A stretch of 64,000 bases of DNA from contig CP154954.1 of NCBI GenBank assembly GCA_039621445.1, positions 36,379,703-36,443,702 of the forward strand, in the 5' to 3' direction. Shown here in pieces: positions 20,247 through 55,798 of this stretch. The notes below the pieces were generated by a model. It saw nothing but the letters and a program-made list of their open reading frames with translations, was not told the origin of the DNA and made no database searches. The stretch is from Euglena gracilis. Lineage: Eukaryota. A program made the position numbers and the translations under genes. Position 1 is the stretch's first letter, and every line of letters starts with the position of its first letter.

Positions 20247-20357
20247 TCAGAGGTCCACGCCCCGCCACCACATCAGGAAGGTGCGGAAGGAGATCTGCCC
20301 ATCGGGGCCGGGCTGCACCCGATTGAGGTCCGTCGCCTGCACCTTGTACTCCAAATC
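20247..20357 (-). CDS. Terminal exon: EF-hand-like 2 DLEYKVQATDLNRVQPGPDGQISFRTFLMWWRGVDL*
   Basis: CAG acceptor; DG.ISF..FL.WW pattern; stop codon. Confidence 0.78.
   Translation of the reverse strand, partial: DLEYKVQATDLNRVQPGPDGQISFRTFLMWWRGVDL

Positions 20358-55798: not shown

Follow-up and report, generated by a model that had tools for sequence, protein, structure and literature searches.

A dispersed alpha-kinase gene in Euglena gracilis

The 64,000-nucleotide stretch of Euglena gracilis DNA analysed here (the window; contig CP154954.1, with positions counted from its first letter) carries on its minus strand, from 55798 down to 20247, what is almost certainly an intact, expressed nuclear gene whose product combines an FHA domain, a helical hairpin, an alpha-kinase domain and an EF-hand-like pair. 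The encoded protein is a soluble alpha-type kinase of ~520-530 residues, 482 of which are encoded within the window. As the initial annotation had recognised, the gene is not visible as a single open reading frame (ORF), and no ORF contains the whole of it. The first entry point was a D-I-Q-G ... T-D-P-Q signature in a minus-strand ORF near 30569, picked up by a six-frame motif scan. Motif scans also placed a G-A-M-R loop near 44378, a G-N-M-G loop near 29711 and an H-x-C-N-x-x-C motif near 29170 on the same strand, and when the DNA was read directly the pieces bearing these motifs were flanked by clean AG and GT borders. Used as a query, the 62-residue minus-strand translation of 29006-29191 retrieved four database proteins, P0001 to P0004, and this piece, part of exon 14, is 74-76% identical to P0001 and P0002. 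Three of the four are full-length (510-532 aa, P0001 having 532), with precomputed FHA and Alpha_kinase assignments and in one case also EF-hand_7; P0003 (383 aa) begins past the FHA region and has Alpha_kinase only.

With the four homologues as queries and the window as subject, tblastn gave 16 colinear minus-strand matches running from 55797 down to 20253. Spliced together, the corresponding exons 1 to 16 (73, 107, 58, 81, 81, 34, 92, 102, 63, 100, 101, 90, 52, 188, 117 and 111 nt, in order) form one open frame of 482 codons plus a stop, with no frameshift. The frame is closed by a TGA at 20249-20247, the same endpoint as the C-termini of the homologues. The spliced product is 85.2% identical to P0001 (410 of 481 aligned residues), 78.4% to P0002, 67.9% to P0003 and 65.8% to P0004; an exact match to the product itself was not found in the protein database. 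The homologues hold the same parts in the same order within single ORFs, on contigs of 1.7-2.9 kb. The matches and the joined frame agree with the 16 exons of the initial annotation, which also had the domain order right (FHA, SHOCT-like hairpin, alpha-kinase, EF-hand-like pair) and both ends of the span exact, the first exon in the window starting at 55798 and the stop codon ending at 20247. Its figures for exon size (52-210 nt) and coding share (about 4.5%) need correction to 34-188 nt and 4.08%, the exons totalling 1450 nt of the 35,552-nt span 20247-55798.

Splicing and expression

Alignment to positions 44001-64000 covered RNA from a raw RNA-seq run, X22, and from the contig sets X1, X9 and X15. 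All four give the same seven joints, which are introns 1 to 7 of the model, and a single contig in each of X1, X9 and X15 carries all seven at word depths of 222-447. The joints lie at 55347/55726 (intron 1, 378 bases skipped, 92 X22 reads), 52554/55241 (intron 2, 2686 bases, 107 reads), 47909/52494 (intron 3, 4584 bases, 75 reads), 46052/47831 (intron 4, 1778 bases, 66 reads), 45844/45972 (intron 5, 127 bases, 114 reads), 45366/45811 (intron 6, 444 bases, 91 reads) and 44412/45274 (intron 7, 861 bases, 98 reads). At 44312, 86 reads extend into 30 bases that match window positions 38015-38044, the start of exon 9, which confirms intron 8. Exons 1-9 are thus joined in RNA exactly as modelled. 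In an X15 contig of 1803 nt, exon 2 falls at positions 164-270 and exon 8 at 619-719, in line with the model; the contig would be roomy enough for all remaining exons and about 260 nt of 3' untranslated region. Exon 14 is present in full (all 19 sampled words) in 18 sequencing runs from 5 studies, and the sequencing-run index lists no RNA run for this exon. At three exon positions (44369, 45318 and 55282) the X9 contig departs from the window sequence; all three changes are synonymous, suggesting variation between strains or alleles under purifying selection.

Eleven of the 15 introns are GT-AG, many of them starting with GTGTG, and intron 11 (30621-30845) is GC-AG. The remaining three, introns 1, 5 and 7, have other borders. 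When the 14 terminal bases on each side were folded, the ends of intron 1 (55348-55725, minus strand, 378 nt) paired at -5.6 kcal/mol, those of intron 5 (45846-45972, minus strand, 127 nt) at -18.5 kcal/mol and those of intron 7 (44415-45275, minus strand, 861 nt) at -11.5 kcal/mol. The values for 10 of the 12 other introns were 0 to -2.5 kcal/mol, with introns 4 and 14 at -4.1 and -8.2 kcal/mol. Read within a junction ambiguity of a few bases, positions +3 to +7 hold CCAAG in intron 1 and CCAGG in introns 5 and 7. PMC11170887 gives GTGTG as the consensus start of GT-AG introns in E. gracilis and CCAGG at +3 to +7 as the consensus in its nonconventional introns, a class described in the literature as peculiar to euglenids and diplonemids. 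Given their non-canonical borders, pairing ends, CCAGG-like motif and removal in RNA, introns 1, 5 and 7 are nonconventional introns of the euglenid type, in keeping with the euglenid origin supposed in the initial annotation.

At the 5' end, 92 RNA reads continue upstream past 55798 into sequence that is absent from 55799-64000. The mRNA therefore includes a first coding exon that the window does not reach, at a distance of over 8.2 kb upstream, so that the missing 5' exon anticipated in the initial annotation is real. Translated by hand in frame, the read consensus ends in ...L-R-L-G-R, followed by a valine whose codon is completed by base 55798, and this segment corresponds to the G-R strand that the homologues conserve in their FHA domain. 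No RNA joint runs from 55798 to any point in 55799-64000. A tblastn search of the window with the N-termini of the homologues (P0003 having no N-terminal region) gave chance matches only, and peptide motif scans allowing mismatches found nothing for this exon above 55000.

Domain architecture of the encoded protein

Exon 1 (55726..55798), preceded by an AG acceptor and matching residues 49-72 of P0001 at 100% in tblastn, encodes the part of the FHA domain with S-R-K-H. The core of the domain, with S-T-N-G, is in exon 2 (55241..55347), which passes the Pfam PF00498 cut-off alone (24.1 bits against 20.7, E 4.9e-5), and its end is in exon 3 (52497..52554). The G-R, S-x-x-H and N-G motifs are the phosphothreonine-contact residues of FHA domains; the second and third are in exons 1 and 2, and the G-R, read from the hand-translated RNA consensus, would be in the upstream exon. 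The full domain scores 52.8 bits in P0001 and 52-58 bits across P0001, P0002 and P0004 to P0007. An AlphaFold2 model of P0001 served for structural comparison (mean predicted local distance difference test, pLDDT, 84.1; predicted template modelling score, pTM, 0.54), and its FHA part matches the FHA structures of Rad53 and RNF8. An FHA domain that keeps S-x-x-H and T-N-G precedes the kinase.

Exon 4 (47832..47912) encodes the first helix of a hairpin, and exon 5 (45973..46053) encodes the second helix together with a conserved K-W-M-x-W. In the P0001 model the two helices span residues 137-153 and 159-172, at pLDDT 91-96. Neither exon, nor P0001, matches Pfam PF09851 (SHOCT, cut-off 27 bits), and the best scores in the clade, 15.6 bits in P0004 (profile positions 2-28 of 28) and 14.9 bits in P0010, are below that threshold. 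The hairpin nevertheless aligns with the PF09851-annotated segments of P0024, P0093 and P0109, to which it is probably homologous. The label SHOCT-like used in the initial annotation is therefore fair as a description, without formal SHOCT membership. Exon 6 (45812..45845), which tblastn recovers as a linked high-scoring pair, is a linker with an invariant T-P.

The kinase domain occupies the next eight exons. Its N-lobe begins in exon 7 (45276..45367) and continues through exon 8 (44313..44414; tblastn E 1e-14) with the G-A-M-R loop, exon 9 (37983..38045) with the ATP-binding lysine in V-A-K (the K258 column, which is kept) and exon 10 (33721..33820; tblastn E 2e-18) with an N-lobe helix. The core starts in exon 11 (30846..30946; tblastn E 2e-17), which precedes the GC-AG intron, and exon 12 (30531..30620) supplies D-I-Q-G, T-D-P-Q and the first zinc histidine. 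Exon 13 (29693..29744), located by motif scan, direct reading and tblastn, carries the glycine-rich G-N-M-G loop, and exon 14 (29006..29193), located by reading the sequence, carries the H-x-C-N-x-x-C zinc module, a basic stretch and a low-complexity linker. Against the Pfam PF02816 cut-off of 21.3 bits, exon 12 alone scores 49.1 bits (E 9e-13) and exon 11 alone 25 bits; exon 10 alone gives 16.6 bits (E 0.0087). P0001 reaches 197 bits, its Alpha_kinase match spanning positions 2-185 of the 185-position profile.

The functions of the ATP-binding lysine, the catalytic Asp-x-Gln-Gly, the Asp of Thr-Asp-Pro-Gln, the glycine-rich loop and the His/His/Cys/Cys zinc module are known from work on MHCK-A and TRPM7. 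All 20 columns that are invariant across 100 aligned alpha-kinases are kept in the spliced product, among them the lysine, D-x-Q-G, T-D-P-Q and the His/Cys zinc ligands, in agreement with the initial annotation, which had described the catalytic and zinc-binding residues as intact. The closest solved relatives in phmmer searches are eEF2K (E 2e-48, over P0001 residues 204-425) and MHCK-A (E 1e-45). Foldseek comparison of the P0001 model returned MHCK-A, eEF2K, an Entamoeba alpha-kinase (PDB 4KUJ), the TRPM7 ChaK domain and ALPK1 at E 1e-23 to 2e-9, with a target TM-score of 0.78-0.80 for MHCK-A and a root-mean-square deviation of 1.4 over 216 columns, at 40% identity, for eEF2K. The kinase domain falls within the eEF2K/MHCK branch and is likely to be catalytically active.

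The last two exons each encode a helix-loop-helix resembling an EF-hand, the first with a loop one residue short (exon 15, 21088..21204; tblastn E 8e-16) and the second with a degenerate loop (exon 16, 20247..20357, 108 nt coding plus the TGA; tblastn E 5e-12). The 3' untranslated region runs on below 20247. In the P0001 model this C-terminal domain has four main helices and a short fifth, including helices 466-477, 488-497, 504-507 and 520-527, and two short, paired loop strands (485-487 and 517-519), at pLDDT 88-97. Neither exon has a Pfam EF-hand match, and P0001 has none up to E 1; sub-threshold EF-hand_7 scores (PF13499, cut-off 30 bits) are 27.3 bits in P0004, 17.8 in P0002 and 17.5 in P0003. 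The domain aligns with the canonical EF-hand pairs of three paralogues, P0008, P0010 and P0016 (EF-hand_7 at 46, 36.5 and 34.5 bits); in P0008 the Pfam match covers 408-470 and the alignment continues to the C-terminus. The C-terminal EF-hand pair proposed initially thus stands as a homologue of canonical pairs that itself falls below the Pfam threshold.

Loop positions were read from the alignment of homologues, to which we applied EF-loop numbering. Loop 1 has 11 residues, lacking position 3, with alanine at position 6 and aspartate kept at positions 1 and 12. Loop 2 has Gln1, Gly3 and Thr12, with Asp5, Gly6 and Ile8 kept. The loops are therefore degenerate, as first suspected, and the pair has lost canonical calcium ligands. 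The degeneracy is common to P0001 to P0004, which makes it an old, fixed state. From these residues we consider canonical calcium binding probably absent.

Relatives of the FHA-alpha-kinase proteins

Among the best 120 word-index matches to P0001, six database proteins (P0001, P0002 and P0004 to P0007, in two clusters at 50% identity) have both FHA and Alpha_kinase, and two of the six are already annotated as FHA at source. The same 120 matches include 14 proteins with SHOCT and Alpha_kinase, named oomycete proteins among them, and 11 with an EF-hand family and Alpha_kinase. A family profile searched against 1.84 billion representatives at 50% identity gave 6655 matches at E<=0.001 and 722 at E<=1e-30. 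Of the best 150 profile matches, only P0004 and P0007 align from profile position 1, and 19 reach the C-terminal EF-hand part. A set of 100 relatives was assembled from five added proteins and 95 of the first 97 profile-match rows, two rows longer than 1000 aa being excluded. In a Pfam scan all 100 had Alpha_kinase, 17 EF-hand_7, 17 SHOCT (E<=0.01), 6 FHA and 3 WD40.

PMC3581485 notes the pairing of SHOCT with an alpha-kinase domain in two kinases of oomycetes. A trypanosomatid kinome paper presents alpha-kinases without accessory FHA domains and FHA on conventional kinases only. Our literature searches found no publication that treats a fusion of FHA and alpha-kinase, or the alpha-kinases of euglenids; the papers listed that bring together alpha-kinases and FHA domains deal with ALPK1 and TIFA or are general reviews, and none on alpha-kinases and EF-hands in protists has a title pointing to such a fusion. 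Within the ranks covered, the four-part combination is rare, belongs to a small euglenid clade and is already in databases, so it is not unique to the window. The initial annotation had called the architecture unrecognised and named its being common in databases as what would speak against this; it is rare and, as a fusion with FHA, without a paper that we could find, yet present in the six database proteins, and the pairings of SHOCT and of EF-hands with alpha-kinase are known.

The paralogues P0008, P0010 and P0016 are about 36-42% identical to P0001 and share the backbone of hairpin, kinase and EF-hand pair, P0008 matching the family profile from 130 to 513 in one stretch. They differ in having a Cys-rich N-terminus instead of the FHA domain and canonical EF loops that pass Pfam. 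The oomycete and protist SHOCT-alpha-kinase proteins, such as P0093 of Aphanomyces stellatus and P0109 of Saprolegnia parasitica, likewise place a hairpin N-terminal to the kinase; theirs passes Pfam as SHOCT, and they have neither FHA nor an EF-hand pair.

The accessory parts of characterised alpha-kinases (eEF2K, the MHCKs, TRPM6/7 and the ALPKs) are calmodulin, WD40 repeats, ion channels or sensors of sugar nucleotides. eEF2K, with a calmodulin-binding N-terminus and C-terminal SEL1-like repeats, has, among solved structures, the catalytic domain closest to this one (PDB 7SHQ and related entries) and resembles the Euglena protein in having an N-terminal regulatory region and an association with an EF-hand protein. 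It has no FHA domain, and calmodulin, the EF-hand protein it works with, is a polypeptide of its own whose loops are functional, in contrast to the fused, degenerate pair here. Up to E 1, P0001 matches only the Alpha_kinase, FHA and FHA-like Pfam families; the helical-repeat C-terminal region of eEF2K is absent, and the protein ends about 125 residues past the kinase domain, in the EF-hand pair, which does not qualify it as an eEF2K orthologue. Dictyostelium MHCK-A (PDB 3LKM and related entries) shares the alpha-kinase fold, the catalytic Asp, Gln and Asp and the zinc module; its accessory parts are a coiled coil and WD40, with no FHA and no EF-hand.

Two systems outside this branch couple a kinase to an FHA domain. 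In Rad53 and Chk2 the FHA domain ties the kinase to partners primed with phosphothreonine and takes part in activating the kinase itself, but the kinase domain is of the conventional eukaryotic type, with no sequence kinship to alpha-kinases. In mammals the alpha-kinase ALPK1 works with the FHA protein TIFA: ALPK1 is reported to phosphorylate Thr9 of TIFA, and binding of phosphothreonine by the FHA domain drives TIFA oligomers. In that pathway kinase and FHA are on separate proteins, the ALPK1 kinase domain is distant (E 4e-16), and the switch for ALPK1 is ADP-heptose, acting on an N-terminal domain that the Euglena product lacks.

Proposed function and alternatives

Overall we lean towards an enzyme of the eEF2K/MHCK type that is active, is targeted or self-assembled through phosphothreonine, and does not respond to calcium. 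The kinase would be catalytically active, and its FHA domain would dock on a phosphothreonine of a primed substrate or scaffold or, alternatively, on a second molecule of the kinase, at a threonine that has been autophosphorylated. Docking of this kind would make activity or assembly dependent on prior phosphorylation. The EF-hand pair, a legacy of paralogues that bind calcium, may have a structural or regulatory role that does not depend on calcium. Taken separately, phosphothreonine-directed targeting or self-association is in our view an even bet, for which ALPK1-TIFA may serve as a precedent by analogy, in that it joins an alpha-kinase and an FHA domain in one logic.

Several points weigh against this explanation. 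The family members are known from sequence. The structure model is that of the 85%-identical homologue, and a pTM of 0.54 leaves its domain arrangement unsettled. For the N-terminal 35-48 residues, with the FHA G-R motif among them, the only source is the hand-translated, 30-nt read consensus. Homology, GT/GC-AG borders and an uninterrupted reading frame are the basis on which introns 9-15, and with them the link from kinase to EF-hands, are modelled. The analysis turned up no candidate for the phosphothreonine that the FHA domain would bind: the T-P of the exon 6 linker is invariant, yet paralogues without FHA conserve it too, so it gives no hint of a ligand specific to FHA. Calcium binding does occur in some non-canonical EF-hands, and the aspartates at positions 1 and 12 of loop 1 leave some room for this.

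The last point leads to the reading in which the protein integrates phosphothreonine and calcium, as the initial annotation had suggested, with an EF-hand pair that still binds calcium and switches the kinase. The homology to the Pfam-passing pairs of P0008, P0010 and P0016, the near-threshold score of P0004, the residues retained in both loops and the fact that eEF2K is calmodulin-regulated (according to its entry titles) would all fit. However, loop 1 is short and without its position-3 ligand, loop 2 has lost the ligands at 1, 3 and 12, including the bidentate acid, the two exons and P0001 give no EF-hand match, and the same degeneracy recurs in all four closest homologues. With these ligands missing, calcium integration is unlikely.

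We regard as similarly doubtful the idea that the EF-hand pair is a tethered mimic of a calmodulin lobe, docking in cis on the hairpin or the N-lobe and setting the kinase on or off, with the FHA domain serving only for localisation. It would draw on the proximity of the kinase to eEF2K, whose solved complexes contain calmodulin, and on a conserved hairpin with an invariant tryptophan N-terminal to the kinase, in a position that presumably recalls the calmodulin-binding segment of eEF2K; hairpin and EF-hand pair also occur together in P0008, P0010 and P0016. On the other hand, SHOCT with alpha-kinase is widespread without EF-hands, the 17 SHOCT and 17 EF-hand_7 proteins among the 100 relatives being mostly different ones, and the pTM of 0.54 leaves the domain arrangement open. 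A complex prediction of the hairpin-kinase fragment of P0001 (residues 130-425) with its EF-hand fragment (450-532) scored 0.00 against a mark of 0.34, in a run that had no folded controls, and weighs neither way on docking.

A switch of the ALPK1-TIFA kind within one polypeptide is a long shot: a threonine autophosphorylated on one molecule would be bound by the FHA domain of its partner, building oligomers, with the EF-hand pair and hairpin as a calcium-independent, calmodulin-like clamp. If true, it would be an alpha-kinase/FHA signalling switch that evolved independently in euglenids. A decaying or non-functional copy, or exons of more than one gene, might be suspected from a first coding exon outside the window, a gene buried in repeats and a product without an exact database match, but both are so improbable that we reject them, on the open 16-exon frame, the 66-114 junction reads per intron, the deep contigs of three further runs, the 20 invariant residues kept, the synonymous nature of all three variant sites and homologues that hold the same parts in single ORFs.

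Under the phosphothreonine-targeted, calcium-insensitive explanation, the fusion of a phosphothreonine reader to an alpha-kinase would add priming-dependent or self-assembling control to a small kinase class. A calcium module that decayed in one branch and is canonical in its paralogues offers a natural comparison for the role of EF-hands on alpha-kinases. The locus is also an example for annotation, as a gene missed by ORF finders, 4% coding, with mixed conventional and nonconventional introns and a first exon more than 8 kb away. It is an ordinary, well-hidden euglenid gene with an architecture that had gone unnoticed in databases, not a new kind of system.

Repeats and surroundings of the gene

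The introns are filled with interspersed repeats. The sequence at 23861-27389 in intron 14 and that at 39212-41940 in intron 8 are 83-90% identical in several blocks and represent an element of about 3.5 kb, inverted partial copies of which lie at 12-1254, with ORFs without a protein domain. A repeat of ~1 kb at 52886-53872 in intron 2 recurs upstream of the gene at 56217-57112 with 96-99% identity; its copies hold long minus-strand ORFs of 297 and 164 aa with no Pfam match, and RNA depth over them is low. A further pair, at 21.6-22.1 kb and 25.2-25.9 kb, is 94-96% identical. The 14 largest ORFs within the introns or next to them are all without a Pfam match, so of the stacked transposons first described here the repeats stand and the identity as transposons does not follow. 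An Rfam scan of the whole window gave no match at gathering scores.

Just downstream of exon 8, in intron 8, a tandem array at 43657-44180 has 49 overlapping copies with a period of 8-14 nt, and a weaker relative lies at 4625-4802. Outside the gene, a nested palindrome at 8097-13940 consists of inverted-repeat pairs with arms of 150-444 nt, 83-94% complementary and symmetric about ~11000. Many RNA reads break off into G runs at the poly-G tracts at 48965-48982, 49450-49467 and 54881, and contigs join 54881 back to 48965 with a few extra G, which has the look of mis-joining at repeats or low-complexity sequence rather than of splicing. Transcript-contig depth is high, up to 373 in X9, over 49337-50670 (intronic) and 57341-59341 (upstream); the contigs aligned there show several mismatches and probably stem from transcribed repeat copies located elsewhere in the genome.

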